Virus record (IMG/VR): IMGVR_UViG_2671180770_000008
Location: 1-11,456 of that record
Direction: 5' to 3' (one strand)
Source of the DNA: a virus
Taxonomy: Duplodnaviria; Heunggongvirae; Uroviricota; Caudoviricetes
Length of the DNA stretch: 11,456 nt
Positions 1 through 11,456 of the stretch are shown piece by piece (the stretch's first letter is position 1; each line of letters begins with the position of its first letter). A program made the position numbers and the translations under genes. The notes under the pieces were generated by a model that worked only from the letters and a program-made list of their open reading frames with translations, made no database searches and had not been told where the DNA came from.

Positions 1-47
1 TACAGTCCTTTTTTCTCCAGACATTCTGCCACGTGATCATGTAGCAT
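1..47 (-). CDS. 5' end of an unidentified CDS running off the left edge (MLHDHVAECLEKKGL...)
   Basis: ATG at 47..45 preceded by GGAGG (RC of 54..58) with a 6-nt spacer; only 15 codons visible, product not recognisable. Confidence 0.4.
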   Translation of the reverse strand, partial: MLHDHVAECLEKKGL

Positions 48-101
48 AAGTGACCTCCGATTATCTACAGACTGCCATCCTGAATTTACCTTCCCTTAAT
101 G

Positions 102-199
102 AAATAACAATAAAAAACAAACCACACAAAAACAATAAAATAACACACAAAAAAAACTAAATAATAAACAAAAATAATCACCTTATTTTATTATTTTTT
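102..199. repeat. 98-nt G-free A/C-rich low-complexity tract in the AT-rich region upstream of the edge ORF
   Basis: Direct reading: no G on the plus strand from 102 to 199 (aaataacaataaaaaacaaaccacacaaaaac...). Confidence 0.7.
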
Positions 200-281
200 G
201 AGGGGGCAATTACTGAACAAAAAACGCTGACTATATACTCAAAACCAAACAACTATTCTGCCAATCAGGTATCATGGCAAC

Positions 282-303
282 ACACGGAATTACCGTGTTT
301 TTG
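282..303 (+). terminator. Candidate Rho-independent terminator on the plus strand
   Basis: Stem acacgg (282..287) / ccgtgt (293..298), loop aatta, then ttttt (299..303). Confidence 0.4.
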
Positions 304-512
304 CCTTCTCTGCCCATACAATACGGGCATATACTTCATACTCTATTGTAATATTTCTATCCATGCGCCCCACTCCATTTACCTGTAAATAATATTCAAA
401 ATATTTATCACAGAAATCGTTTTTGTCCATGAACTGAGCACACTATAAAGTCCGGAACTGACTCTTTGTTAAATTACCTTAACGTTACCAGTAACACCTT
501 CATAACAAAACA

Positions 513-980
513 TCACGGTATACACTGGGTACGGATATATTCCTGTGCTCCTTCCAGTTGCTTCTGCATTGCCATCAGCCGTTCTCTGAGGATGAAATAA
601 TCCCGTTCAGCGGCTTCTGCCAGTCGGGGACCGGTTGCATTATCCACGCCGGAGGTGATGGGGGCTTTACGCAAGGAGCCTGGACAGTTGGCGTTGATGC
701 GCAGGCGCTTACGACCAGCGGCAACATCAGCACGCAGAGTTTCATTTTCAGCTCTCGCATCGGCTAATTCCCTCGAGTATCTGGCATCAAGTGCAGCGAC
801 ATCACGCTGGCGTACCTGCATATCAGTAATTGTCACGTTCGCCAGCTTCAGCTCACTGGCTTTTTTATCGCGTTGCGCTTTGTAGGTAATGGCGTTATCG
901 CGGTAATGATTCAGCCCCAGACTAAGCACACCACAGGCTACCAGCAGGACAATAATCACCACACACAGAACACGGTTCAT
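513..980 (-). CDS. Rz: Rz i-spanin (inner-membrane spanin subunit)
   Basis: 155 aa; N-terminal TM segment then coiled-coil; strong similarity to lambda Rz as I recall it ([43 protein letters not shown]); ATG at 980 preceded by GAGGGGGA. Confidence 0.93.
575..760 (-). CDS. Rz1: Rz1 o-spanin lipoprotein, embedded in the +1 frame of Rz
   Basis: 61 aa; lipobox LVVSAC, proline-rich [26 protein letters not shown] closely matching lambda Rz1; entirely nested inside Rz. Confidence 0.9.
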
Positions 981-987
981 ATCCCCC

Positions 988-1119
988 TCACCCCACCAGC
1001 CATGACAAAGTTAAGACGCGCCAGGCAGTGGAAAAGCAAATAGCAACCAGCATTAGTGAAAATGAAATGCCGACGATTACACAGAGGATCTTCGCCAGCG
1101 TTATGAGCTTGTCTGACAT
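988..1119 (-). CDS. 43-aa small hydrophobic protein ([43 protein letters not shown]), unknown function
   Basis: ATG at 1119 preceded by AGAGGA plus 6-nt spacer; stop TGA 990..988 lies 7 nt before the Rz start; one predicted TM helix. Below the ORF-track size cutoff. Confidence 0.45.
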
Positions 1120-1131
1120 GCTTAATCCTCT

Positions 1132-1314
1132 TCACGATTTCAACGCAATGACCAGTTTTGCCAGCCCATACAGCATCGGAGACACAGCAATACCGACCGC
1201 CACCCACTTAATAGCAAAAGCCAGCGCTCTGCTGACGTCATCAGTTACAGGCGCTTTCAGTTCAAGGCCGTTTTTCATAGTCAATCTCAACAGAATTCGT
1301 TTATACTTTCCCAT
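1132..1314 (-). CDS. 60-aa small protein with C-terminal TM helix (MGKYKRILLRLTMKNGLELKAPVTDDVSRALAFAIKWVAVGIAVSPMLYGLAKLVIALKS), unknown function
   Basis: Internal ATG of track ORF 1132..1392; the longer N-terminal extension reads through a terminator hairpin and is rejected; AGGGAG-like RBS upstream; stop 12 nt before the next RBS. Confidence 0.45.
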   Translation of the reverse strand: MGKYKRILLRLTMKNGLELKAPVTDDVSRALAFAIKWVAVGIAVSPMLYGLAKLVIALKS

Positions 1315-1351
1315 GTTCTCCCTTGCCTTACTCAAGGTCAGAAACACAAAA

Positions 1352-1380
1352 CCCCGTTTGCGGCCAACAAACGGGGTTTT
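1352..1380. terminator. Bidirectional intrinsic terminator
   Basis: Perfect 9-bp inverted repeat ccccgtttg (1352..1360) / caaacgggg (1368..1376), 7-nt loop, A-tract on the left and T-tract on the right. Confidence 0.7.
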
Positions 1381-1469
1381 ACTTTTATTCACTTAGTTTT
1401 TGCCAGTTCGCAGGATTTCGTGTTATCCGCCCGCGTTGGCCAACGTCATTTTTCAGCAAAATATTCTGC

Positions 1470-1860
1470 TTATCTGTCAATTCCCCAGCACGCCAGTGCA
1501 CTTTCCTGGTCTCGCCGGGATACCTGGCCGTAGCAATTATTTGAGCGGATACGGCAGTCTCTGCCACCGTCCTTAATCCACCAGCGAATCGCTTCGCAGG
1601 CACCTTTTCGATCACCTGCATTAATCCGTCTGTAAAACGTAGACGGGAAACACTTACCGGGGCCAATGTTATAAGGACAAAATGACGCGATACCCGCCTT
1701 CTGGGGTTCGGTCAGCGGTACTTTAATATTGCGCTCCACCCACTCCAGCGCCTTATCACGTTCAATGGCGTTACCCACCAATTTCCGGTGCCACAGTAAC
1801 AGTAATCTTATCCGGGTAATTATTTATCCCTTTAACAACCAGTTCGTATTTTTTCTTCAT
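1470..1860 (-). pseudogene. Disrupted endolysin: C-terminal ~100 aa of a GH24 phage lysozyme (RrrQ / Stx-phage R type) joined out of frame to an unrelated 29-codon ORF (MKKKYELVVKGINNYPDKITVTVAPEIGG)
   Basis: Frame 1470..1781 encodes NAIERDKALEWVERNIKVPLTEPQKAGIASFCPYNIGPGK...GACEAIRWWIKDGGRDC...ALACWGIDR, matching the C-terminal half of lambdoid lysozymes; there is no SAR/signal segment or catalytic Glu-Asp-Thr region; the ORF starting at 1860 (good RBS GGGGAGAG) stops at 1773..1771 in a different frame. Confidence 0.7.
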
Positions 1861-1864
1861 CGCT

Positions 1865-2080
1865 TTACTCTCCCCGCGCCGCCTTACGACGGTCCTCTCT
1901 GATTTTGAAATACAGGTTAGTCAGATACGTCAGCAGGCCAAACAGCAGACTCCCCAGCACACCTATCGCCACCCACTGGGACGGAGAGACTTTGTCCAGC
2001 AGCTGCAGTAACCAGTATCCCGTCCCCACCGCTGACGTGGTGTATGACACACCTGTTGTGATTTTTTCCATCTGGTACAT
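1865..2080 (-). CDS. S: Class II holin (S21-type pinholin), 71 aa, with dual-start motif
   Basis: [10 protein letters not shown]...[40 protein letters not shown] closely matches phage 21 S / EssD-EssQ holins; Met1 and Met4 dual start; RBS GGGAGA upstream. Confidence 0.92.
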
Positions 2081-2155
2081 ACCCCGTCTCCCGCAATCCG
2101 GAAGCTCACAACAACAGGAGGGGCATCAGCTCACACCGACAGCCCCTGCGTATGG

Positions 2156-2425
2156 TTACATCATCATTTCGCCGCCAGGCTGAGGCTCACTGCTACCGTC
2201 AGGCTGAGACACAACGCCATCTGAAACAGCACTGTCACCCGCGCCGTCTTCAGGCTCAGGAGCAGCCGGTCCCCCCAGCAGCTCATCCAGAATGGCATCC
2301 ACTTCAGCATCAAGACGCGCCTCAAGATTCTGGCGGAGTTGCTGTTTCAGTGCGCTTCTGACTTCTTCAGAGCGCAGGACGTCCTTCACTGCTTCAGCAG
2401 TGACCAGAGATTTTATTTCTGACAT
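2156..2425 (-). CDS. Hypothetical acidic protein, 89 aa (MSEIKSLVTAEAVKDVLRSEEVRSALKQQ...)
   Basis: Internal ATG of track ORF 2156..2581; the upstream extension overlaps the better-supported 60-aa gene in another frame; weak RBS. Confidence 0.5.
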   Translation of the reverse strand: MSEIKSLVTAEAVKDVLRSEEVRSALKQQLRQNLEARLDAEVDAILDELLGGPAAPEPEDGAGDSAVSDGVVSQPDGSSEPQPGGEMMM

Positions 2426-2462
2426 GGGATTTTCTCGTTGAAAGGTGTTGTTAAGAAAGTTG

Positions 2463-2645
2463 CTACGAAATGAGAGGCTCTTCGGGTTTTGTTCCGGCTG
2501 ACTGGCTGGCGCTGATTTTTTCCGCCGCCGCGGCATCAATCTTTTTGCGTATATAGTTCCGGATAACCTTATACCCGCCACTTACCAGATATAACGTGCA
2601 CACCACCGTGCAGAAATACAATAAAATAAGCTGTACAAATCTCAT
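2463..2645 (-). CDS. Small membrane protein, 60 aa (MRFVQLILLYFCTVVCTLYLVSGG...)
   Basis: ATG at 2645 preceded by GGGAGG; hydrophobic N-terminal helix. Confidence 0.55.
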   Translation of the reverse strand: MRFVQLILLYFCTVVCTLYLVSGGYKVIRNYIRKKIDAAAAEKISASQSAGTKPEEPLIS

Positions 2646-2739
2646 TATCCCTCCCGGTTATTGATATGGTGTTGACATCGTTAATACCTGTTGGTTAAAA
2701 AAGTGTCCTGCATGTTTTGCTTTGGATATAACGACATTT

Positions 2740-2787
2740 GCCGCCGGTTCTGGCTCCTTGTTTTCCCTGCCCCGGCGGCCTTTTTTT
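2740..2787 (+). terminator. Intrinsic terminator on the plus strand (antisense to the late operon)
   Basis: 8-bp GC stem gccgccgg (2740..2747) / ccggcggc (2772..2779) followed by ttttttt (2781..2787). Confidence 0.55.
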
Positions 2788-2792
2788 CCTGC

Positions 2793-4730
2793 TTACGGGT
2801 TATTCACTTCCACTGTTATACTTTCAATCAGCACCGGATATGTCGCACCGCTAGTGATATCGGTCACGCGCAATTTGTCTGCCGTAAACGTGCCGACCGG
2901 TGACTGTGACAGCATGAACGGCGTCCCGTCCTTACCATCAATGACCGGCGTCACCTCAATACTGTTGTTACCGGCAAAACGGAAGCCCAGCGTATGCCAT
3001 TCGTTATCAAATGCGCCGAATGACCCCAGCTTCGTGTTCTGACCAGCATTTCCCTTGTGGTACATCACATTAAGGTCTGTGGCATCGCTCTGTACGTAAA
3101 ACGACGCCAGCAGGTTATGACCGGCATTACCTTCCAGTGTGACGCCCTGAGGCAGTGAAGAAACCGGCCAGTACAGCGCCAGTGCGTACTGATTAGCTGT
3201 CAGTGTGCCATCAACTTTAAAACGACAACTGATAAGCCCGCCCTTCTCCAGCAGGTCTGCGCCATTACCGGCATCATGCTGCATAAACCACGAGGAACTT
3301 CCTGTCTGTTTGGTCCACCTCAGCGCCTTACCTCCTGCAGCACCTGCATCATCAACTACCAATGCACGCCCTCCTTCAGCTCCCCATCCCTGCGGATTCA
3401 GTAAACCACCTGACTCTGTTGCACGGTAATAAAGCAGCGTTGTCACTGATTTCCCGTCCGTTGACGGTGTTGATGGTGTGTCCGGTGACGGCTTCTCATC
3501 CGGCGGCATCACAACCTGTTCCCCACCCACCAGTTCAGCCGTCCGTCCTGCATGGAGAAGAATCGCTGAGGCAAGACGGTCAGAAATAATCCCCCTGCGT
3601 GCCCATGAGCTGAAATGGCTCGCACGGTCTGCTGACGTCCAGTTTGCCGACGTCCGGGAGGCCGCACCGTAATATCCTGATGCCGGAATATCCGGGTCTT
3701 CTTCCGGTTTGTTCGTCGGGACATTTGCTCCGTTCTCATCGGTCATGAACGGCACAAAGTGAATATTCTTTTCCGTTTTGTTTTTGTAACTGCCGTACAC
3801 CGTCTGGTAAGTGGATTCGCTCTTCTGCTTCCAGAAATAAGTTGTGTCTCCACATATCCAGGGAACACCGTCAGCAGAACCACCAGCGCACTGTCCCACC
3901 ATATCTGCAAGGTCCGTACGATATTGTTCCACTACTTCTGTAAAACGGGCTGTGTGATTTGCTGGCGTTCCGTCAAAGTCAAATTCCCCCTGCATCCACA
4001 CCACGGCAAGCAGCACATTTTTCGGGTTCTTTGCCAGCGCGGCTTTTGTACGACCGATGAGATCCTTATACAGCGGCCTGCCCACACCCCAGCGGGTATA
4101 ACTCTCTGAGGCACCGGTCACGTCACTGTATGTTCCATCTGCCCCGGTGGTGAAAGCTGAACCACCACGGCAGCACGGAACCAGAAGAATACCCGCATTC
4201 GCCGGTATAAACGGCAGCAGCTTTTTGGCAATATGCAGCCCGTGCCCCACGGTTCCGTACTGACCTTTCGACAGGTCAGCTTTCGGATGGTTAAGACGGC
4301 TCATGTCCTGTACATCATGCAGACAGTGGTCTGCCGGAATAATGTCGTTATATTTACAGGGAGCGCCATCCGGCGTCACTGTGCTGCGACGAGCCAGTTG
4401 CTTTATACGCGGGTCAGGACGGTCATATGTCTGCGGCAGAGGAAGCCCCTCACCGTAAGCCATGCCGTTCGACTGCCCGGCCAGTGGAATAACGTAGTAA
4501 TAATCTGGCTCCGTGGTGACCACTCCCGGATAGCCACCATCCCCCGTGCCGGGCACAACCACTGGCGTGGTCACATCCCCCTCCGCGGCAATCGCCTGCA
4601 TCAGGGTATAAGGGGTTATGGCCACAGGACTACCAAACGGCTGCCAGCCCTCTTTCAGTTTGTGTGTCAGCTTTTCCGCAAGATCTGACGGCGACGCCGC
4701 CCTGACAACATCATAATGTTTAATCGACAT
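2793..4730 (-). CDS. nanS: NanS-p-type prophage sialate O-acetylesterase, 645 aa
   Basis: Strong RBS GGGAGA; N-terminal MSIKHYDVVRAASPSDLAEKL... segment, esterase-type motif YYVIPLAGQSNGMAYG, size and position (between Q and S) as in the NanS-p proteins of E. coli O157 prophages. Confidence 0.88.
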   Translation of the reverse strand: MSIKHYDVVRAASPSDLAEKLTHKLKEGWQPFGSPVAITPYTLMQAIAAEGDVTTPVVVPGTGDGGYPGVVTTEPDYYYVIPLAGQSNGMAYGEGLPLPQTYDRPDPRIKQLARRSTVTPDGAPCKYNDIIPADHCLHDVQDMSRLNHPKADLSKGQYGTVGHGLHIAKKLLPFIPANAGILLVPCCRGGSAFTTGADGTYSDVTGASESYTRWGVGRPLYKDLIGRTKAALAKNPKNVLLAVVWMQGEFDFDGTPANHTARFTEVVEQYRTDLADMVGQCAGGSADGVPWICGDTTYFWKQKSESTYQTVYGSYKNKTEKNIHFVPFMTDENGANVPTNKPEEDPDIPASGYYGAASRTSANWTSADRASHFSSWARRGIISDRLASAILLHAGRTAELVGGEQVVMPPDEKPSPDTPSTPSTDGKSVTTLLYYRATESGGLLNPQGWGAEGGRALVVDDAGAAGGKALRWTKQTGSSSWFMQHDAGNGADLLEKGGLISCRFKVDGTLTANQYALALYWPVSSLPQGVTLEGNAGHNLLASFYVQSDATDLNVMYHKGNAGQNTKLGSFGAFDNEWHTLGFRFAGNNSIEVTPVIDGKDGTPFMLSQSPVGTFTADKLRVTDITSGATYPVLIESITVEVNNP

Positions 4731-4816
4731 CGAATTTCTCCCGTGTACAGGAACAGAGTTAAAAAGCCGGAACCGGAATCAAATCACAGGATGACCATCT
4801 GCCAGTGGCTGGTCGT

Positions 4817-4843
4817 AAAAAAAAGGCCGCGCCATGCGCAGCC
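4817..4843 (-). terminator. Intrinsic terminator on the minus strand, upstream of nanS-p
   Basis: Minus-strand RNA GGCUGCGCAUGGCGCGGCC (8-bp stem, 3-nt loop) followed by UUUUUUUU (RC of 4817..4824). Confidence 0.7.
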
Positions 4844-5044
4844 GGAAATAAAGGGATAACGATGATAGTTTGAGAAAAACAGAAATAACACTTTTGTGGC
4901 AAAGCATGGTGCCGGGTGCCTCCCGGTGAATTCAGTACCAGCACCTGAATCCGCGATTATCCCATATACCTGGTTGCTGATTGCCCCTCCGCACAGGGGG
5001 ATTCACCATGCAGTAGTATTTTTAATAAACAGTAAACAAAAAAA

Positions 5045-5212
5045 TCAAGCATTATGCAGGCTGTTTCTTTTTATCACCGGCCACAGCAATACCACAATGC
5101 CGCAGACCAGCCCCCCATCCGCCAGCACCGACATGATTCTGCTGGTGAAATCCACCATCACCACCAGAAACAGCAGGAGTGCAGCCACAGCCAGGCGCAG
5201 TTTTACCGTCAC
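5045..5212 (-). CDS. 55-aa small membrane protein (VTVKLRLAVAALLLFLVVMVDFTSRIMSVLADGGLVCGIVVLLWPVIKRNSLHNA), GTG start overlapping the TerB-like stop
   Basis: GTG 5212..5210 overlaps TGA 5211..5209 (GTGA); GGAG 8 nt upstream; two hydrophobic stretches. Below the ORF-track cutoff. Confidence 0.4.
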   Translation of the reverse strand: MTVKLRLAVAALLLFLVVMVDFTSRIMSVLADGGLVCGIVVLLWPVIKRNSLHNA

Positions 5213-5680
5213 AGGTGATTCTCCAGACGAAGCCCCAGAACACCGGCAATCTCTTCCAGCACCTTGCGCTCTTCCGGCTCAATTTCGCCGTCTGCCTCCG
5301 CAATGGCCACCGCCACATCCAGCACATCTTCCGCTTCACGCGTATCGTGTTTCACATCCTCGATCTCACGTAACGCCGCACGACGACCAATTTTAAAGTT
5401 CGTATCCAGCTGACCGATAATGGTTGCGCTAATCGCATTAATTTCTGACGTAAACGCGGACAGCGCTGGCTGATTACGCAGTACCTGTTCGATCTTCGCT
5501 TTCTAGGAAGCCTCACATTCACCATCTGCACAGGCCACCAGGTATGCGGCGTTAATCACCGTCTGTGCCAGATCGCGTTTCTCAAACTTTCCTTTTTCCG
5601 GTTAACGTGACACACCAATAACTCTTGTCGAAAAAGCCAGCAAGCTGAAAGACCGGTATTCACAACCACCAGCGCGTTTA
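5209..5680 (-). pseudogene. TerB-family (tellurite-resistance TerB-like) gene disrupted by an in-frame amber codon and a 5' frameshift
   Basis: Frame 5601..5209 encodes ...EKGKFEKRDLAQTVINAAYLVACADGECEAS*KAKIEQVLRN...DVLDVAVAIAEADGEIEPEERKVLEEIAGVLGLRLENHL with TAG at 5505..5503; the N-terminal part (..GFFDKS..) sits in another frame; no usable start codon. Confidence 0.55.
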
Positions 5681-5704
5681 CTGTACTGGCGTGATTTCAG
5701 TCAT

Positions 5705-5727
5705 AAAAAAACCCGCCTGGCGACGGG
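5705..5727 (-). terminator. tR'-like terminator of the short pR' leader transcript
   Basis: Minus-strand RNA CCCGUCGCCAGGCGGG (6-bp stem, 4-nt loop) followed by UUUUUUU. Confidence 0.75.
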
Positions 5728-5763
5728 TGTAAAAAATCTTCTAACGTCAGGCATAAAACGCCC

Positions 5764-5803
5764 ATCGTTAGGGCAAATTTACCACAGATTCGGGAAAAAT
5801 CAA
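5764..5803 (-). promoter_or_regulatory. pR'-like late promoter with qut / pause element
   Basis: On the minus strand: -35 TTGATT (5803..5798), 16-bp spacer, -10 TAAATT (5781..5776), then TGCCCT AACGAT GGG, closely resembling my recollection of the lambda pR' -10 / pause region (GGGTAAATTTGACTCAACGATGGG); starts directly after the Q stop codon. Confidence 0.7.
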
Positions 5804-5808
5804 CAAAG

Positions 5809-6630
5809 CTATCTGGTCACCTTTTTCAGTTGTTGTTCTGCCCATGCTTCTTCAATATCAAACTGCACCACCAGCGTATCGTAAAAACGTTTAACTGTTT
5901 TTTTCCATGTATCAAGAGATATGGCATCGGTTACATTACATATGGCATTAAATGCCTCCGTTGAAGGTAATCTTTCATAGCCACGACCACCACAACGCTG
6001 GCAGTCTCTGATAACAGGCATACCACGTTTTACCGACTCTTCACGATGAATGGCAACACCGCGCCCACGACAATCTTTACAGGCGGTGGAAACCTCCCCC
6101 TTCCCTCCACACTCCGGACAGGCAACTTTTACCACCTCCCTGACTTTTTTCCATTCCTCCCAGTAAGACGGATACACGCCTTTTGTGCACTTTGCCCACA
6201 CTGGCGGCTTACCATCCGGATACTGGATCTTGTTTGTAAAAACCTCGCTTTCAATAAATTTTTTTCCGTGACAACAGGGGCACTGTTTTTTGCTCGCCGC
6301 GCTACGGGCATAATCTTCAAACGCATACGAAGCCATAATACGCATCACTGCCGGTTTTATTTCTGCCGGGAGTTTTTTTAACGCCGCCACGCGATCACAC
6401 CGACTGAGTGCATATTCTGTCAGCAATTCTGTTGCCCGCTCTCTGTCATTCATACTAATGCCCATTTTCCCAAGGAACGCAGAAAACCCCATCTCAGCCC
6501 AATTCTGTGTCATGCCCTGCGCGGCCATCACATCAGTGATACTCAGCGTATCTTTCGACGTTGAGGCCGATGCATCAGTCAGGCCGGGGGATTTTGGGGA
6601 GTAGTATTTCGGTAAATCTTCCAGTTTCAT
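5809..6630 (-). CDS. Late-gene antiterminator Q (Q-like, zinc-binding), 273 aa
   Basis: Immediately upstream of the pR'-like promoter; several CxxC pairs (CPCCHGKK, CPECGGKG, CKDCRGRG, CQRCGGRG); position equivalent to quuQ / quuD. Confidence 0.8.
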   Translation of the reverse strand: MKLEDLPKYYSPKSPGLTDASASTSKDTLSITDVMAAQGMTQNWAEMGFSAFLGKMGISMNDRERATELLTEYALSRCDRVAALKKLPAEIKPAVMRIMASYAFEDYARSAASKKQCPCCHGKKFIESEVFTNKIQYPDGKPPVWAKCTKGVYPSYWEEWKKVREVVKVACPECGGKGEVSTACKDCRGRGVAIHREESVKRGMPVIRDCQRCGGRGYERLPSTEAFNAICNVTDAISLDTWKKTVKRFYDTLVVQFDIEEAWAEQQLKKVTR

Positions 6631-7001
6631 TTTTTGACCTGCCCTCCAAGCATTATGGGGTAAATCTTCACCCCCAGACGTCCACCAGATACTGGCTGAG
6701 CACGAACGATATTGATTTCATCAAACTGCTCATCGTCCATTAGCAACCCCGCATGCGTCAGCGCATCCAGCGGCGCTTTCAGAATATTGTCCAGGTCACG
6801 GCGGCGCTTATCCGGTGGCTCGGCAATAATCTTTATCGCCAGCCTTCCGGACAGGCTTAATTTCAGCCGCTGCTGGCGAACAATAAGCGCCACAGCCCGG
6901 CGATAACGCTCACCGGCTTTTGATACAAAATATGTGCTGCCACGACGTCGCCAGTAGGTGTTCACCGTCGGCGGGTAAAGCAAAACAAACTCTATACGCA
7001 T
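6627..7001 (-). CDS. rusA: RusA-family Holliday-junction resolvase
   Basis: PDKRRRDLDNILKAPLDALTHAGLLMDDEQF and SGGRLGVKI align with E. coli RusA ([40 protein letters not shown]); RBS GAGG; stop overlaps the Q start (ATGA). Confidence 0.92.
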   Translation of the reverse strand: MRIEFVLLYPPTVNTYWRRRGSTYFVSKAGERYRRAVALIVRQQRLKLSLSGRLAIKIIAEPPDKRRRDLDNILKAPLDALTHAGLLMDDEQFDEINIVRAQPVSGGRLGVKIYPIMLGGQVKK

Positions 7002-7013
7002 CAGTAACCTCTT

Positions 7014-8063
7014 TTACCCGAGCACGCCGGTTGCAAAGGCGTGATCAAGAAAACGAAAAATTAAATCAACCTGGGAACCATGCTTTTCTTCGAACGCCAG
7101 CGGATCCGCATGAAGCTCGTTGTGATGCTCCCGACACAGCGGTAGCGTGAAAATATCGTGGGATTTTGTTCCCATTCCGCCCTGACCATGACCAATCAGA
7201 TGATGAGGATCGTCCGCTGGCTTACCACAACACGCACACGGCTGTGTCTTTACCCAGCGTGTGTATTTCTCATTTACCCAGCGGCGACGTTTAGGTCGTT
7301 TCATGAAGGATTCCGGAGACTCCGGATCAACGGCAATGCTGACCACCGTCTTTTCCTGTGGTGGGTTCTGTTGCTGGTGGGTGTGAGACGGTAGCGCAAT
7401 ATTTTTTGTGCGCTGCTTCAGTATGCTGGTGGCGGTCTGTTCTCCCGGTATGATGTCGCTTTCACGGTATACGGAGCGGATTTTTTCCGCACGCAACCCC
7501 AGCGAAAGACGTAATACCGCTTCCGGTAGCGCGTCCGCCACCTGATTGCGGACCGCCCACCAGGATAATTCAGCCAGAGATAATTCACGCTCCTGTGCGC
7601 CATTCATTGCGTGACGGATGATGTCAATCATCCAGGCGGCCAGATTCTGTTGAGCAAGTTGATCCAGTGAATCAGATGTCTGCTCCCGCAGCTGGTTGTC
7701 GCAGTGCCAGCACAACACCATCGCGCCGGTACCGTAACGGTGAATGACGGTTTCGCTGTGATGATAATCACCGTGTAGCCACTGGCAGGATTTCACGTGA
7801 CGTAATAACCAGTCAGACAGTGCACCAGCGCCACCCGCAGCACGGATCACCCGCTCATCGCTGAAAAATGGCAGTAGTGATTTATCTTCCGCCAGCGGCT
7901 GGTGAACGGCAGGTACAACCCCGGACGGCAGAGCTCGCATGCTTTTTGGTTCCGGCTCCACCAGTATTCTGCCGTTATGGAATGCTGACATTGATTCACG
8001 GCCTGGCTTAACGATAACCAGACCGAGTTCCGGTACCAGAACAGGTCGAAGTAATACCCGCAC
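7014..8063 (-). CDS. DUF968-family prophage protein (YdfU-like) with C-terminal HNH-like Cys/His motif
   Basis: 349 aa, position as ydfU in Qin (rem - ydfU - quuQ); motif CACCGKPADDPHHLIGHGQGGMGTKSHDIFTLPLCREHHNELH; GTG start 8063 with GGAGG upstream, overlapping the upstream stop. Confidence 0.65.
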   Translation of the reverse strand: MRVLLRPVLVPELGLVIVKPGRESMSAFHNGRILVEPEPKSMRALPSGVVPAVHQPLAEDKSLLPFFSDERVIRAAGGAGALSDWLLRHVKSCQWLHGDYHHSETVIHRYGTGAMVLCWHCDNQLREQTSDSLDQLAQQNLAAWMIDIIRHAMNGAQERELSLAELSWWAVRNQVADALPEAVLRLSLGLRAEKIRSVYRESDIIPGEQTATSILKQRTKNIALPSHTHQQQNPPQEKTVVSIAVDPESPESFMKRPKRRRWVNEKYTRWVKTQPCACCGKPADDPHHLIGHGQGGMGTKSHDIFTLPLCREHHNELHADPLAFEEKHGSQVDLIFRFLDHAFATGVLG

Positions 8064-8064
8064 A

Positions 8065-8343
8065 TTACCTCCAGATCCGTTGCTGGAATGTGCGGGACGG
8101 ACGCGGTGGCCGTTCGGAGTAAGGGAGCCTGACGGAGATTATCCAGTGACGGTAGTCGAGGCTAAGGGCTTTTTTAACCTCGCATCCGCGCCTGCGGTAA
8201 CACTGAATGAGCCATTCGGCCTGTTCTTCAGTGCATGGGGGATGCTGGTACCAGTCAGATTTGAATGCGTGAAAACACCGTCCGCGCCTGCTGGCAAAGA
8301 CGGCAGAATCATCAGAATTGTATAATTTGGTATCGTGCGCCAT
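8065..8343 (-). CDS. Hypothetical Cys-containing protein, 92 aa, in the position of rem
   Basis: Internal ATG of track ORF 8065..8424 (MAHDTKLYNSDD...); the longer extension would read through the hok terminator. Confidence 0.5.
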   Translation of the reverse strand: MAHDTKLYNSDDSAVFASRRGRCFHAFKSDWYQHPPCTEEQAEWLIQCYRRRGCEVKKALSLDYRHWIISVRLPYSERPPRPSRTFQQRIWR

Positions 8344-8415
8344 CGGTTGTCTCTGCTGGCGCAGCAGGTGCCAGTTGTTCAGGCTGGCGTGCGAATTGTA
8401 AACCAGAATGCCAGG

Positions 8416-8440
8416 AAAAAACAAAACCCGCCGAAGCGGG
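8416..8440 (-). terminator. Intrinsic terminator at the 3' end of the hok mRNA
   Basis: Minus-strand RNA CCCGCUUCGGCGGG (5-bp stem, UUCG loop) followed by UUUUGUUUUUU. Confidence 0.7.
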
Positions 8441-8510
8441 TTAAGTGCGGGTGCGTTGAGGATGCCTGATTCATCAGAGGTGGCGAGGGATTTCTCCCTC
8501 GCCGGGTCTC

Positions 8511-8666
8511 TTACTCCTCAGGTTCGTAAGCTGTGAAGACAGCGACCTCCGTCTGGCCGGTTCGGATTCGTACCTCGCAGAGGTCTTTCCTCGTTACCAG
8601 TGCCGTCACTATGACGGTTAAACAGATGACGATCAGGGCGATTAACATCGCCTTTTGCTGCTTCAT
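8511..8666 (-). CDS. hokD: Hok-family type I toxin (HokD/RelF-like), 51 aa
   Basis: MKQQKAMLIALIVICLTVIVTALVTRKDLCEVRIRTGQTEVAVFTAYEPEE, which I recall as identical or near-identical to E. coli HokD; RBS AAGGAG 9 nt upstream. Confidence 0.9.
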   Translation of the reverse strand: MKQQKAMLIALIVICLTVIVTALVTRKDLCEVRIRTGQTEVAVFTAYEPEE

Positions 8667-8871
8667 AGCCTGCTTCTCCTTGCCTTTCGGCACGTAAGAG
8701 GCTAACCTACATGTGTCTAGCATGAAATTGACCTCAGATTAATGTTAGGCGTCTTGCAGGACGCGTAATGTTAACTGGGGCTTTTCTCTGTCTGCCTTTT
8801 GGTGTTCATGCCTGAGGCAGATAGCCTCAAGCACCCGCAGCAATTCTACTTAACTCTCGCTTTACAGCAAA
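8667..8871 (-). promoter_or_regulatory. hok mRNA promoter and leader: -10 TAGAAT (8848..8843), tac-like hairpin, mok-like upstream reading frame (ATG 8723) in frame with hok
   Basis: Leader UUGAGGCUAUCUGCCUCA... parallels the plasmid R1 hok 5' end; the 5' element (RC of 8825..8840) is complementary to a 3' element at 8445..8461 (fbi-type long-range pairing). Confidence 0.6.
8715..8790 (+). ncRNA. Putative Sok-like antisense RNA (approximate extent)
   Basis: Plus-strand promoter candidate TTGCCT (8680..8685), 17 bp, TAACCT (8703..8708); transcript would be antisense to the mok-like start/RBS; no clean terminator found, 3' end uncertain. Confidence 0.25.
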
Positions 8872-8882
8872 CCGTTTTTACC

Positions 8883-8904
8883 CGATATGGGAATTCCCAT
8901 ATCG
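8883..8904. repeat. 22-bp perfect palindrome CGATATGGGAATTCCCATATCG
   Basis: Direct reading; centred on GAATTC; between the 34-aa ORF stop and the hok promoter -35. Confidence 0.8.
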
Positions 8905-8912
8905 TAATGAAT

Positions 8913-9017
8913 TCAGTTCCCTAGTCGATCCATCAAAAACACAACCAGGCAGTAAACGCCCACAACAGCAACAACAGCCAGCGCACCTTCCATTGCCAGT
9001 GAGATATCATCCGACAT
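8913..9017 (-). CDS. 34-aa small hydrophobic peptide (MSDDISLAMEGALAVVAVVGVYCLVVFLMDRLGN)
   Basis: ATG 9017 preceded by AAAGGAGGG with a 4-nt spacer; single predicted TM helix; verified codon by codon. Below the ORF-track cutoff. Confidence 0.45.
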   Translation of the reverse strand: MSDDISLAMEGALAVVAVVGVYCLVVFLMDRLGN

Positions 9018-9052
9018 ATTCCCTCCTTTGGTGTTAATCCCGGCGAACGTTT

Positions 9053-9136
9053 TTACCCCCACCGACAAATAACATATACTAAAAAAGCGATAGCCATAGC
9101 AACGCCTGTAATTGCAAATGCTTCAGGCCAGTTCAT
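9053..9136 (-). CDS. 27-aa small hydrophobic peptide (MNWPEAFAITGVAMAIAFLVYVICRWG)
   Basis: ATG 9136..9134 overlaps the TGA stop of the upstream DUF551 gene (ATGA); GGAGG 7 nt upstream; single TM helix. Confidence 0.45.
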   Translation of the reverse strand: MNWPEAFAITGVAMAIAFLVYVICRWG

Positions 9137-9717
9137 TGGCGCACCTCCTGCGGCGGTTCTGGTAGCGGCATCCAGTCGGTTACATTGCGGCTCTGTGTTT
9201 CGAAAAATTCATCACCATCACGGACTACATCAAAAAACTCACCGTCTCGATATTGCGCATAAAGAACGAATGCGCCATCACATAAAATAATTACGTGCTG
9301 ACCGTCATCCGGCATTCGCTCACTACAGCTTATCCAACCATCCAGAGTTACCGGATAGTTGGTTGACGTTTCCGAGATTTCCCGAAAATTATTGGTTGAC
9401 GAACCCTTCTTTTCCCGAAAGTTTCCAGCCTGAAGCATGGCGGCGCTGTCTGGCGGGGCAGCATATAGCGGCACGTATATTTCCGGTTCCTTATCAGCAC
9501 CGGGTTGCTCTTCCAGTGAGAATGTCTTTCCGGTAAATCGATTCATATAAAGCACGGGCTCTGCTTCCAGCGAAGCCTGAGCAACAAGGGCCAGTGCTAA
9601 ATCCAACTCAATTGCCTCGAGAGAATTTTTGAATGCTGTCTGTTTTACTGCAAATTTCATCGCCTTTACATTTTCACTAACATGACTGATTAACTGCTCT
9701 TTTGTAAAAGTGGTCAT
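9133..9717 (-). CDS. DUF551-domain phage protein, 194 aa from ATG 9717 (alternative GTG start at 9777)
   Basis: C-terminal DUF551-like signature WISCSERMPDDGQHVIIL...DWMPLPEPP; AGGAG RBS 6 nt before ATG 9717. Confidence 0.7.
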   Translation of the reverse strand: MTTFTKEQLISHVSENVKAMKFAVKQTAFKNSLEAIELDLALALVAQASLEAEPVLYMNRFTGKTFSLEEQPGADKEPEIYVPLYAAPPDSAAMLQAGNFREKKGSSTNNFREISETSTNYPVTLDGWISCSERMPDDGQHVIILCDGAFVLYAQYRDGEFFDVVRDGDEFFETQSRNVTDWMPLPEPPQEVRQ

Positions 9718-9773
9718 CTCATTCTCCTTTGATGCGAATGCCAGCGACAATTGAAGCCTGATAGCTAATTCAC

Positions 9774-10169
9774 TCACAATACCGCCTCCTGAAAATTGCC
9801 CTGATAGAACGCCAGTACACGCAGCATAACTTCACTCTTCCGGCACTCGCCACAGATTATGTTCTGTTGTCTGTCGTAGCGGTGTATTTCTCCGTCTGGT
9901 AACTTTCGAATCAATGTCTGGTCGGTTGTTTTCTCCGCTGCCTTACGCCATACGCGATACACCTGTTCTGATGTAAAAACACCGTATTTACCGGGCATGT
10001 ATAAATTGCCGCAAGCCAGTACATCCACAAGGCAACGTCTGACTGAATGCCAGCCTGCTCCCGTCGCTCTCTCCAGTTGTGATATCGTCATGCGTTCATT
10101 TTTGCGTACCAGCCCGATAATTCGGGCCTTCAGTTCTTCACGCTGTTCGTGTGTAAAAGGTTTCGCCAT
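9774..10169 (-). CDS. Hypothetical protein, 131 aa, with predicted N-terminal HTH-like segment
   Basis: ATG 10169 with GGAGG at a 5-nt spacer; RMTISQLERATGAGWHSVRRCLVDVL resembles an HTH; function not recognised. Confidence 0.7.
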   Translation of the reverse strand: MAKPFTHEQREELKARIIGLVRKNERMTISQLERATGAGWHSVRRCLVDVLACGNLYMPGKYGVFTSEQVYRVWRKAAEKTTDQTLIRKLPDGEIHRYDRQQNIICGECRKSEVMLRVLAFYQGNFQEAVL

Positions 10170-10184
10170 AAGCGCCTCCGGCTA

Positions 10185-10910
10185 TCACTTTTCCGACACA
10201 ATACGACCGGATGAATCGACAATCTGCCGAACAATATCCCAGTGCTTGTTCAACTCCCGCAGCGCGGCGCAGACTCGCTCCCACTTCTGAACCTGACCTT
10301 TTGCTCGGCGCAGCTCGCGGTTAGCCACATGCAGCGATGGTAGAATCAGGTCATCTGCTTTCGTTTCAGTGAACGATTGCTGCAACTTCACAATGTCCTC
10401 CACCGCTTCTGTTTTAATTTCTTCCTGTGCAGCCGTTTCCTGGACTGGTAACGCAACACCTGCTGGCTGAGGAAGGGCTTTACCCTCCGTTTCAGCTACG
10501 GATGCAGCTTTCTGCTCTGCCGGTAAATCAACGCCCGGTATGCAGTAACGAAATTTACCATCCTGATTCACGCGAATCAGACGCCCTTTGCTGATTGCCA
10601 TTGCCAGCGATGAATTCGCACGGCGGGAGGTAATTCCGAACATCAATGCCAGCTCATCCGCCGTTTGTGGGCCATGATGTTCAATCGCCTCAGTCAGCAT
10701 TTGCGCTGTCACTTTCGGTACCGGTGACACTGGTTCACTTTCACCAGTCTGAGTCAGCCACCACATCGACCCCTTGTTATCCGCTTCACCACGGCGCTTC
10801 AGTTTCCACAGTTCGTTGACAGCATCTTCGCGGCTGATTCCAAGGCGCGATGCCACTACCTGTGAAGAGGCTTTTTTCAGTGCTTTCAGTGCGTCAAATA
10901 CAGTTTCCAT
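10185..10910 (-). CDS. Hypothetical protein, 241 aa, with two winged-helix-like segments and an acidic linker
   Basis: ATG 10910 (METVFDALK...) preceded by GGAGGA; track ORF begins 6 codons earlier at a TTG; function not recognised. Confidence 0.7.
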
Positions 10911-10931
10911 TAAAACGTCCTCCAACAAAAA

Positions 10932-11456
10932 TTACTTCACAACCCTCTGATTGCTGACATTTGGACGCCAGCTATCCCAGTTAAACGTCACCCATCGACC
11001 ACCGCTCATGGTCATCCGGTCCATAATCCTCTCACCAAGAAGCGTGCTCATTGCGGCATGATTCAGGTTTGTTAACATCCCGACACTGCACAGTGATGCT
11101 GTCCGGCGATCAATTATCTGGTGTAATACCACCTGCTCGTTTTTCGTCTCCCGCTGAACGCCTATTTCATCCAGGACCAGCAAATCAACCCCGCAAAGCT
11201 CCTGTAAAAATTTTTCCCCGGATTTGCCGTTGTCGTAGCTGTCATGCAACACGCTCATGACATCAGACACGGTGACGATAATCACGCTGCGCCCCTTCGC
11301 CATCAGCCGGTTACCCATCGCCGCTGCAAGGTGATTTTTCCCGGTGCCGGTTTTACCGCTGAACACAAAATTCGTGCACCCGGTCATCAGTTCGTCAGCT
11401 ATGGATTTGGCCTGGCTCAGCGCGTATTTTTGCCCGTCGTTCTGCACCTGATAATT
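10932..11456 (-). CDS. DnaC-like helicase loader / replication protein (IstB-type AAA+), C-terminal part; N-terminus beyond the window
   Basis: Walker A GKTGTGKNHLA, Walker B LLVLDEIG, and tail GERIMDRM...WVTFNWDSWR align with E. coli DnaC (GPVGTGKTHLA, LLVIDEIG, GERVMDRM...WVIFNWDSYR). Confidence 0.9.
   Translation of the reverse strand, partial: NYQVQNDGQKYALSQAKSIADELMTGCTNFVFSGKTGTGKNHLAAAMGNRLMAKGRSVIIVTVSDVMSVLHDSYDNGKSGEKFLQELCGVDLLVLDEIGVQRETKNEQVVLHQIIDRRTASLCSVGMLTNLNHAAMSTLLGERIMDRMTMSGGRWVTFNWDSWRPNVSNQRVVK

Follow-up and report, generated by a model that had tools for sequence, protein, structure and literature searches.

The stretch of DNA examined here (the window, 11,456 nt) comprises positions 1 to 11,456 of the IMG/VR record IMGVR_UViG_2671180770_000008 (Caudoviricetes) and corresponds to the Q-to-Rz section of an Escherichia coli lambdoid prophage, with its genes on the minus strand. 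Between the remnant of the endolysin gene R and the i-spanin gene Rz, two small open reading frames (ORFs) were observed, encoding predicted membrane peptides of 60 amino acids (p60) and 43 amino acids (p43), and a terminator-type hairpin is located upstream of p60 (table 1). A preliminary description of the window had placed both ORFs, their ribosome-binding sites and the hairpin in an interval of approximately 490 bp; all of these elements were recovered at the same positions, and the distance from the stop of R to the start of Rz was 489 nt. In the K-12 prophage Qin, R overlaps Rz directly and no genes intervene.

Two conserved genes between R and Rz

Both ORFs correspond to RefSeq hypothetical proteins, p60 to WP_001303555.1 and p43 to WP_001280929.1, and in prophage Sp14 of E. 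coli O157 Sakai their counterparts ECs_2740 (p60) and ECs_5740 (p43) sit between the endolysin gene ECs_2741 and the Rz gene ECs_2738. The p60 ORF is nested in a longer GTG-started ORF (1132..1392). Hydropathy analysis revealed one membrane helix in each peptide, at residues ~30-58 of p60 and ~4-33 of p43, and the AlphaFold2 model of p60 contained helices at residues 3-14 and 24-59, of which the N-terminal helix was basic. The membrane character suggested in the preliminary description was therefore supported by prediction for both peptides, but the homology searches led only to families of unknown function: p60 matched phrog_1115 over residues 1-60 (E 6.6e-42), and p43 matched phrog_4906 over residues 1-43 (E 7.3e-24). 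Neither peptide had a match in Pfam, NCBIfam or PADLOC, and the p60 model had none in BFVD. An exhaustive hidden Markov model search of 1.84 billion representative proteins yielded only 20 small relatives of p60, and a scan of the GTDB species-representative genomes with the family profile yielded no relative. All but one of the named homologues came from Escherichia, Shigella or Salmonella, and every one was called hypothetical.

Within this host range, both genes are common and conserved. The exact p60 and p43 proteins were each found on at least 996 contigs; the p60 cassette DNA was matched in 1710 of 5426 complete E. coli genomes (approximately one third), for p43, the counts were at least 1220 complete E. 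coli genomes and 276 phage records, among them 933W and numerous Shiga toxin (Stx) phages of the Stx1 and Stx2 types. Among 20 p60 alleles, 22 of the 31 variable sites fell at codon position 3, the pooled ratio of non-synonymous to synonymous change (pN/pS) was 0.15, and the membrane helix was nearly invariant from E. coli to Salmonella. In p43, the 26 N-terminal residues, which contain the membrane helix, were nearly invariant while synonymous sites varied, and synonymous change exceeded non-synonymous change in this transmembrane half (e.g., 6.0/20.5 vs. 2.0/54.5), a pattern indicative of purifying selection; the C-terminal 17 residues changed almost freely and appeared near-neutral. The RefSeq entries, the hydropathy profiles and the signature of purifying selection across related prophages, which the preliminary description had named as a check, confirmed at the level of sequence that p60 and p43 are real conserved genes for small membrane proteins, with conservation far above chance.

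The p43 gene is tightly coupled to Rz. Its stop lies 7 nt from the Rz ATG (position 980); the same distance had been assigned earlier to the Rz ribosome-binding site, but the Rz Shine-Dalgarno sequence GAGGGGG in fact overlaps the p43 stop. In 143 scored loci, the p43 stop was separated from the Rz ATG by 2 or 7 nt regardless of the upstream cargo, and the p60-p43 spacer was 12 or 14 nt long (144 loci). A direct p43 homologue, XECs191, was reported as a translated novel small gene of O157 Sakai, with 30 reads per kilobase per million (RPKM) for RNA and 12.6 RPKM for ribosome footprints, and was predicted as an inner-membrane protein with one helix, with no function attached (PMC5597208). XECs191, now ECs_1966 (49 aa in PMC5597208, 48 aa in the current RefSeq record), occupies the same place between the antirepressor gene ant and Rz, and differs from p43 of the window in being the 933W-type allele. 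Two possible derivations of p43 were rejected: BLASTP gave no alignment with the Rz membrane anchor, of which p43 could have been a duplicate, and hhalign assigned a probability of 6% to paralogy with p60.

The preliminary description had regarded the two ORFs and the hairpin as one insert. Their distribution did not agree with this view; p43 goes with Rz, the hairpin goes with p60, and p43 and the p60 cassette are, judging from these linkages, two independent modules. On the one hand, p43 occurred without p60 in Stx phages that carry an antirepressor gene in the place of p60 (the p43 frame of 933W overlaps the ant stop), and its linkage to Rz was kept under ant or P22-type antirepressor cargo, including Sakai Sp10 and Sp11. 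On the other hand, p60 occurred without p43 in Salmonella prophages with the order holin, lysozyme, p60, Rz, and directly preceded Rz in E. coli variants; p60-family genes were also found in cassettes with M15-peptidase endolysins. Between conserved neighbors, Qin carries neither type of cargo, 933W, Sp10 and Sp11 carry ant, and the window and Sp14 carry p60. Because p43 is fixed to Rz, p60 or ant alternate upstream of it, and Qin lacks any of them, the plan of the region is R, a variable slot, p43 and Rz/Rz1. PhiR12 and PhiR5, which were deposited as complete phage genomes with K-12 and E. coli C as listed hosts, also carry p60/p43 genes.

Mosaic arrangements were observed at this junction as well. 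In three of the compared loci (L085 612..1077, L187 1367..1715 and L076), three small membrane ORFs lie between R and Rz, namely p43, a C-terminal p60 fragment and a 28-aa peptide MSAELIRAMAFAIRIVAIAVLVWAIRWW; as far as can be read from these mosaics, recombination within these small genes has been frequent. In the M15-endolysin cassettes of L086 (2655..2837) and L175 (495..700), behind a p57 gene, or behind p60 plus p44, comes a gene for a 60-aa lipoprotein with the lipobox LLVGC and a mature part of ~30 aa, which is frameshifted in L175; an Rz-type spanin was not evident in these cassettes.

Structure of the p60 cassette

Alignment of eleven divergent loci delimited a p60 unit with a sharp left edge. 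From this edge, the cassette consists of AAAAG[T/C], the hairpin AAAACCCCG…CGGGGTTTT, a 33-nt leader (G/C)TGTTTCTGACCTTGAnTAAGGCAAGGGAGAAC, and the start codon and gene. The hairpin, leader and gene travel together behind signal-arrest-release (SAR)-type lysozyme R, ant, M15 endolysins, Salmonella lysozymes and tail-fibre genes. The DNA beyond the edge shows no relationship from one context to another; it is the R 3' flank, the last part of ant or of a 93-aa gene, or a tail-fibre terminator. Since these upstream flanks are unrelated, we assigned the hairpin to p60; the possibility that it is the terminator of R was ruled out, as it moves with p60 and not with R.

The preliminary description had interpreted the hairpin as a strong bidirectional terminator. 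The gene strand shows the stem with TTTTGTGTTTCT and the plus strand with TTTTACTTTT; the folding energies are -19.7 and -17.9 kcal/mol, respectively, and the terminator scan classed it as terminator-like on the plus strand. It was present in at least 15 variants, and its upper stem varied with compensatory changes, including one pair with five standard pair types; the covariation score of 0.159 (0.104 ± 0.019 in shuffles) was reached by 3 of 500 shuffled alignments. These features, with tracts on both strands, point to a structurally conserved element of the bidirectional-terminator type, but the two strands are not equivalent: in 12 of 16 variants the hairpin was more stable on the gene strand, where G·U pairs stand in place of the C·A mismatches of the other strand (e.g., -20.5 vs. 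-13.6 and -22.3 vs. -15.9 kcal/mol).

The leader is predicted to fold by pairing of UUUCUGACCUUG and CAAGGGAGAA, which masks the p60 Shine-Dalgarno sequence; the arms are fixed and the loop is variable. All 113 evaluable IMG/VR loci with this leader had a p60-family reading frame behind it, of which approximately one in ten was disrupted, and in 99 of the 113 the hairpin pattern occurred within 60 nt upstream of the leader. Use of the leader by other kinds of genes, as a portable element, was ruled out by the same 113 loci. An alternative leader form was observed in L165 (2960..3005) and L186 (1575..1615), in which 26 nt inserted after GGGAGAA give rise to an upstream ORF of 8 codons, namely MCREVYSL* in Salmonella and MGREVLSL* in E. 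coli. The UGA of this ORF overlaps GUG, the start codon of the p60/p57 gene (GUGA), an arrangement that recalls, by analogy, mok-hok coupling.

Constraint on the cassette extends into the 5' end of the coding region at the nucleotide level. Between E. coli and Salmonella pairs, codons 3-18 showed 0-1 synonymous differences at 10.3 sites, whereas codons 19-60 of the same pairs showed 18-25 differences at ~34 synonymous sites (Fisher p 1e-5 to 3e-4). The E. coli allele beside hya gave the same contrast, as did a comparison of two Salmonella alleles. This segment spans the complements of both elements of a plus-strand promoter (TAGTCA 1278..1283, 18 nt, TATACT 1302..1307) that had been proposed to drive an antisense RNA. 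The -10 element fared better than the promoter as a whole: AAGTATA, which contains the complement of TATACT, did not vary in any of the 20-odd cassette variants or the 64-aa paralogues, and the rare Arg codon CGA beside it was kept in five deep lineages (AGA in L086). The -35 element was not conserved, and the match as such was at chance level, with 2 promoter-like sites found in 1.8 kb and 2.0 expected from shuffled sequence. An overlapping antisense ORF was ruled out as the cause of the 5' conservation, its frames being open in E. coli and interrupted by stops in the Salmonella alleles, and a search of the window for a trans-encoded complementary RNA returned chance 10-11-mers only.

The same segment contains a possible second start. 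Met1 and Met13 are both conserved, the Shine-Dalgarno sequence of Met13 is GAGG in 22 of 23 alleles (GAGA in the window), and several gene callers chose the Met13 start. Because GAGG-N6-ATG is retained in paralogues even where the encoded residues differ (LR vs. VE), the alignment suggests that Met13 may serve as a second start, with a product of 48 aa.

Some copies at prophage ends form tandem paralogues of 60 + 64 aa or 64 + 55 aa (L174 130..760, L172 2730..3170 and L173 60..530). In L174 each copy has its own hairpin, and in L172 and L173 a hairpin is present at the 64-aa copy only, and the 55-aa gene borders this copy directly. The paralogue pair of L174 is bracketed by a direct repeat of the terminator GCCGCTGAGATGCGGTTTTTTTGTGCCTG, which hints at a mode of insertion of the cassette. 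A copy behind tail-fibre genes (L168) has a terminator-like hairpin with a T-run downstream, as read by eye.

Possible roles of p60 and p43

The genes from below Q down to Rz are inferred to form a Q-dependent late operon, in which we placed p60 and p43 because Q lies upstream on the same strand and no minus-strand promoter-like site intervenes; the scan of 400..2200 found none except 429..400, downstream of Rz. On this basis, we proposed that both genes encode late-only membrane proteins, belonging to two modules and made by Q-antiterminated transcription, a reading to which we would give an even chance of being correct. It builds on the reality and linkage of the genes, the structure of the cassette, the conservation of its hairpin and the nucleotide constraint described above. 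p60 would be the cargo of a mobile "terminator-first" cassette, consisting of the hairpin, a leader that occludes the Shine-Dalgarno sequence, and the membrane-protein gene, and its products, a 60-aa form started at AUG1 and probably a 48-aa form started at AUG13, would be tail-anchored in the inner membrane. Because there is no promoter between the hairpin and the gene and the upstream DNA varies with context, p60 would be transcribed only by a polymerase that ignores the terminator, that is, the Q-modified late complex. In the lysogen, the hairpin would silence p60, with help from occlusion of the ribosome-binding site and perhaps from a short antisense RNA. Once the prophage is induced, p60 would enter the inner membrane and act on the envelope in the lysis phase. 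p43 would be translated along with Rz and most likely act with or on the spanin/lysis machinery. The level of insulation of p60 suggests a product harmful to the lysogen and useful late, such as a membrane-active lysis helper, and the conserved helix of p43 points to a membrane partner. Accessory lysis-timing proteins, which the preliminary description had offered as its alternative, would also suit a place in the late operon. A precedent exists in the prophage membrane toxin HokW, which aids lysis and release of Sp5 (PMC8621323).

Several points weigh against this reading. Terminator activity, Q dependence, silencing in the lysogen, membrane insertion and the effect on lysis are each parts that we infer. 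Family, profile and fold searches gave no homology of either peptide to a holin, antiholin, releasin or spanin. p60-family genes also occur after tail-fibre genes or at prophage ends, some as tandem paralogues of 55-66 aa, so a strictly lysis-tied role is not required, and the persistence of intact p60, p43, Rz and Rz1 beside the dead endolysin of the window also fits a selfish module or one beneficial to the lysogen. Moreover, terminator gating alone does not account for the freeze of codons 3-18 or for the invariant TATACT, which possibly reflect an RNA-level element such as an antisense RNA.

Such an RNA is central to the type I toxin-antitoxin pair put forward in the preliminary description, which we consider doubtful, although it deserves serious attention. 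In this explanation, a plus-strand RNA of ~70 nt would start ~7 nt after TATACT, end at the hairpin, and anneal across the p60 leader, ribosome-binding site and start codon, blocking synthesis of a membrane-toxic peptide until the RNA is lost or late transcription surges. The invariant AAGTATA with its neighboring CGA and the near absence of synonymous change in codons 3-18 speak for it, as do the A-run at the cassette edge, which supplies a long U-tail to the plus-strand hairpin, and the paralogue copies, which have their own hairpin 30-75 nt before the start and occur in tandem, as is typical of type I loci. All 26 variants folded as a two-hairpin RNA of 73-108 nt (window -24.5 kcal/mol, z -4.2); RNAalifold gave a covariation term of ~0 for this putative RNA, whose first stem-loop is nearly invariant and hence uninformative. 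By its sequence features, p60 is a small hydrophobic membrane peptide of 60 (or 48) aa with a predicted C-terminal helix, and the upstream ORF that overlaps the start in the second leader form recalls mok-hok. However, the promoter match is at chance and its -35 is weak and variable (TAGTCA, TAATCA, TGTTCA, TGGACA), and the hairpin favored by G·U pairs is that of the gene strand. Nor is there a toxin promoter: no promoter-like site was found on the gene strand, 33 nt separate the hairpin from the ATG, and the DNA beyond the hairpin shows no relationship from one context to the next, so that the locus is not autonomous as type I systems are. A cis-antisense RNA alone would also leave the frozen leader and promoter spacer unexplained, because complementarity persists whatever mutates. 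Searches of Pfam, NCBIfam and Rfam gave no match to Hok/Sok, Ldr/Rdl, Ibs/Sib, TisB/IstR or Zor/Orz, and Rfam (E <= 1) found nothing in 988..1392, yet detected sok at 8661..8836 of the same window. As weak negative evidence, the consulted parts of the published supplements on transcription start sites, Hfq crosslinking and analysis of cDNA (CRAC) and ribosome profiling listed neither a transcript nor a novel ORF for the Sakai Sp14 locus, and those of the Sakai Hfq-CRAC data listed no small RNA at ECs2740/2741. The idea is thus partly supported as a candidate explanation. An extended version, in which the p60 cassettes are mobile RNA-gated membrane toxins whose terminator and cis-antisense RNA are overridden by Q, the 60/48-aa isoforms act as a holin/antiholin-like lysis timer or depolariser, and p43 is an unrecognised partner or regulator of the Rz spanin across Stx1, Stx2 and related phage records, appears to us speculative and rather improbable.

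Both genes might instead be ordinary morons, small membrane proteins expressed in the lysogen for host benefit or superinfection exclusion, which settled where the late operon tolerates insertions and take no part in lysis. Several observations speak for this: the R-p43 slot takes alternative cargo, either the p60 cassette or one of several antirepressor genes; copies occur at classic moron sites (after tail-fibre genes and at prophage ends); both genes are intact despite the dead endolysin; and XECs191 gave RNA and ribosome signal in cultures without deliberate induction. We nevertheless regard this as unlikely: the gene strand lacks a promoter-like site, the terminator stands upstream of p60, reversing the promoter-gene-terminator layout, and p43, 12-14 nt from p60 (12 nt in the window) and 2-7 nt from Rz, is packed like a gene of a translationally coupled late operon. 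The weak XECs191 signal is compatible with spontaneous induction, and PADLOC gave no defence matches. Highly improbable, in our view, is the absence of protein function for one or both genes, with p43 serving as a translated leader that feeds ribosomes to the Rz start and p60 being a decaying remnant. The overlap of the final p43 codons with the Rz ribosome-binding site, the near-neutral C-terminal 17 residues of p43, and the frameshift or truncation of ~10% of the IMG/VR cassette copies are in its favor, but p60 is clearly under purifying selection, with a helix nearly invariant between E. coli and Salmonella, the N-terminal 26 residues of p43 are nearly invariant against varying synonymous sites, and both genes are retained in hundreds to thousands of genomes.

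p60 and p43 have partial parallels in known systems. The sar RNA of phage P22, an experimentally demonstrated RNA of ~69 nt with an experimentally demonstrated promoter, starts near the start of ant, has a sequence complementary to the ant ribosome-binding site, stops at a terminator that the opposite strand also uses, and keeps a harmful phage protein from leaking. p60 resembles sar/ant in sequence layout alone; p60 is a predicted membrane peptide and the ant product is an antirepressor. In dual-start holin/antiholin genes, such as lambda S105/S107 with its sdi stem-loop and S21 68/71, the starts are 2-3 codons apart. p60 shares with them a small (here predicted) membrane protein from a lysis cassette, a pair of conserved in-frame start codons that each have a Shine-Dalgarno sequence, a conserved (here predicted) stem-loop over the first of these, and a longer form that would have extra positive charge; it differs in that its starts are 12 codons apart, its single helix is C-terminal, it has no holin-family homology, a separate S21-type holin is present, and copies occur outside lysis cassettes.

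Lambdoid morons such as bor, lom and HK97 gp15 (the concept of Hendrix and Juhala) carry a promoter on their 5' side and a terminator on their 3' side, and the lysogen expresses them. p60 is similar in its presence or absence among collinear late genes, in encoding a small membrane/envelope protein and in sharing its junction with alternative cargo, but the p60 cassette has its terminator upstream and no detectable promoter. Mu gp25, "releasin", is an accessory lysis membrane protein (PMC9239132). LysA of phage P2 is another. Such proteins tune lysis and are not one of its core steps; p60 and p43 resemble them as predicted small inner-membrane proteins encoded beside endolysin/spanin genes, but show no sequence or fold match. 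Finally, p60 shares with hok/sok, and especially with hokW-sokW of Sp5 (PMC8621323), a small inner-membrane peptide in a lambdoid prophage (predicted for p60), a possible short antisense RNA that crosses the translation-initiation region and ends at a terminator, and, in one leader form, a mok-like upstream ORF overlapping the start. p60 differs in having no sequence or Rfam similarity, in its helix being C-terminal and not N-terminal, and in an mRNA without its own promoter, from a cassette that lies inside the late operon straight behind a terminator.

The existence of both genes was already known from hypothetical-protein annotations and from the listing of one homologue as a translated small ORF. 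A literature search on the accessions, locus tags and small proteins of lysis cassettes turned up no functional study, and we found no description of the split into two modules, the terminator-first mobile cassette, its frozen 5' segment, which may hold a dual start or an antisense promoter, or the near-universal p43-Rz pairing in Stx phages. The lambdoid lysis cassette is among the best-studied gene sets, yet p43, a peptide from a family of hypothetical proteins, directly precedes Rz in 933W, Sp10, Sp11 and Sp14. If either gene modulates the timing of lysis or the release of phage, this would bear on Shiga-toxin release, because toxin release depends on phage-mediated lysis. In addition, an upstream terminator combined with the lack of a promoter suggests a simple general route by which a mobile gene could be strictly "late only", and the frozen 5' end, as a candidate new antisense or translational control element, points to control at the RNA level.

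Setting of the locus

The genes of the window are arranged in the order DUF1627, DUF977 and DUF551 genes, hok/sok, DUF968, RusA and the antiterminator gene Q. Q is followed by an STnc100 small RNA match, a gene for a 645-aa SASA/DUF6645 esterase, DUF1378 and DUF826 genes, the S21-type holin gene, the damaged endolysin region, the p60/p43 interval and Rz with the embedded Rz1, whose counterpart carries an Rz1 or lipoprotein annotation in 933W and Sakai. The preliminary description had called R a remnant, and this was borne out: compared with Sakai Sp10, 535 bp are absent, and codon 29 of a YdfR-family gene is joined to the 3' 60% of R. The lysis cassette of the window is, to judge from its reading frames, defective by loss of the endolysin, with holin, p60, p43, Rz and Rz1 intact.

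Table 1. Features of the p60/p43 locus and of the neighboring late genes in the window
Feature	Positions	Strand	Basis or remark
Antiterminator Q	5809..6630	-	Same strand as p60/p43, upstream of both
S21-type holin	1865..2080		PF04971; separate gene from p60/p43
Endolysin remnant: 29 first codons of YdfR-family (DUF1327) gene and 103 C-terminal codons of lysozyme R	1470..1860	-	Pfam PF07041, PF00959
Junction of 535-bp deletion	1774..1776		
AAAAGT, distal A-run at cassette edge	1381..1386	.	Plus-strand ACTTTT lengthens U-tail; kept in 15 variants
Intrinsic-terminator-type hairpin, 13-bp stem, A-tract and T-tract flanks	1348..1380	.	Terminator scan
Conserved 33-nt leader	1315..1347	-	Alignment and folds
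p60, 60-aa predicted tail-anchored membrane protein	1132..1314	-	ATG 3 nt after Shine-Dalgarno AAGGGAG (1318..1324)
p60 codons 3-18, nucleotide-constrained segment	1261..1308	-	Synonymous-change contrast
Possible 48-aa isoform from internal AUG (Met13, 1276..1278)	1132..1278	-	Own Shine-Dalgarno
p60-p43 intercistronic spacer, including p43 Shine-Dalgarno AGAGGA (1126..1131)	1120..1131	-	Sequence
p43, 43-aa ORF, predicted single-pass inner-membrane peptide	988..1119	-	ATG; AGAGGA Shine-Dalgarno 6 nt upstream
Rz i-spanin gene, 155 aa	513..980	-	Pfam PF03245 Phage_lysis, E 2e-46; ORF list
Rz1 o-spanin, 61-aa lipoprotein, nested in Rz	575..760	-	ORF list

Additional features were observed around these genes. 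Approximately 80 nt past the R stop (1385..1469) are conserved with 933W and partly with Salmonella, and contain GGCGGATAACAC(G/A)AAATCC, which is able to form a short hairpin. The STnc100 match (101.6 bits, 4871..5037, minus strand) occupies the pR'/tR' moron site, between Q and the esterase gene. A canonical hok/sok locus is present at 8511..8836 (minus strand), with an Rfam sok match of 113.5 bits at 8661..8836 and a Hok-like ORF at 8511..8723 (minus strand) whose C-terminus is ...MKQQKAMLIALIVICLTVIVTALVTRKDLCEVRIRTGQTEVAVFTAYEPEE; it resembles hokW-sokW of Sp5. Beside hok, a weak isrK-like match at 8421..8502 (minus strand) scored 27.7 bits and did not reach the gathering score of 50. At the other end of the window, a 46-aa ORF at 290..430 (minus strand) corresponds to the RefSeq hypothetical protein WP_001096932.1, and a very AT-rich tract (60..230) precedes a PerC/Pch-family regulator gene that starts just past the left end of the window.

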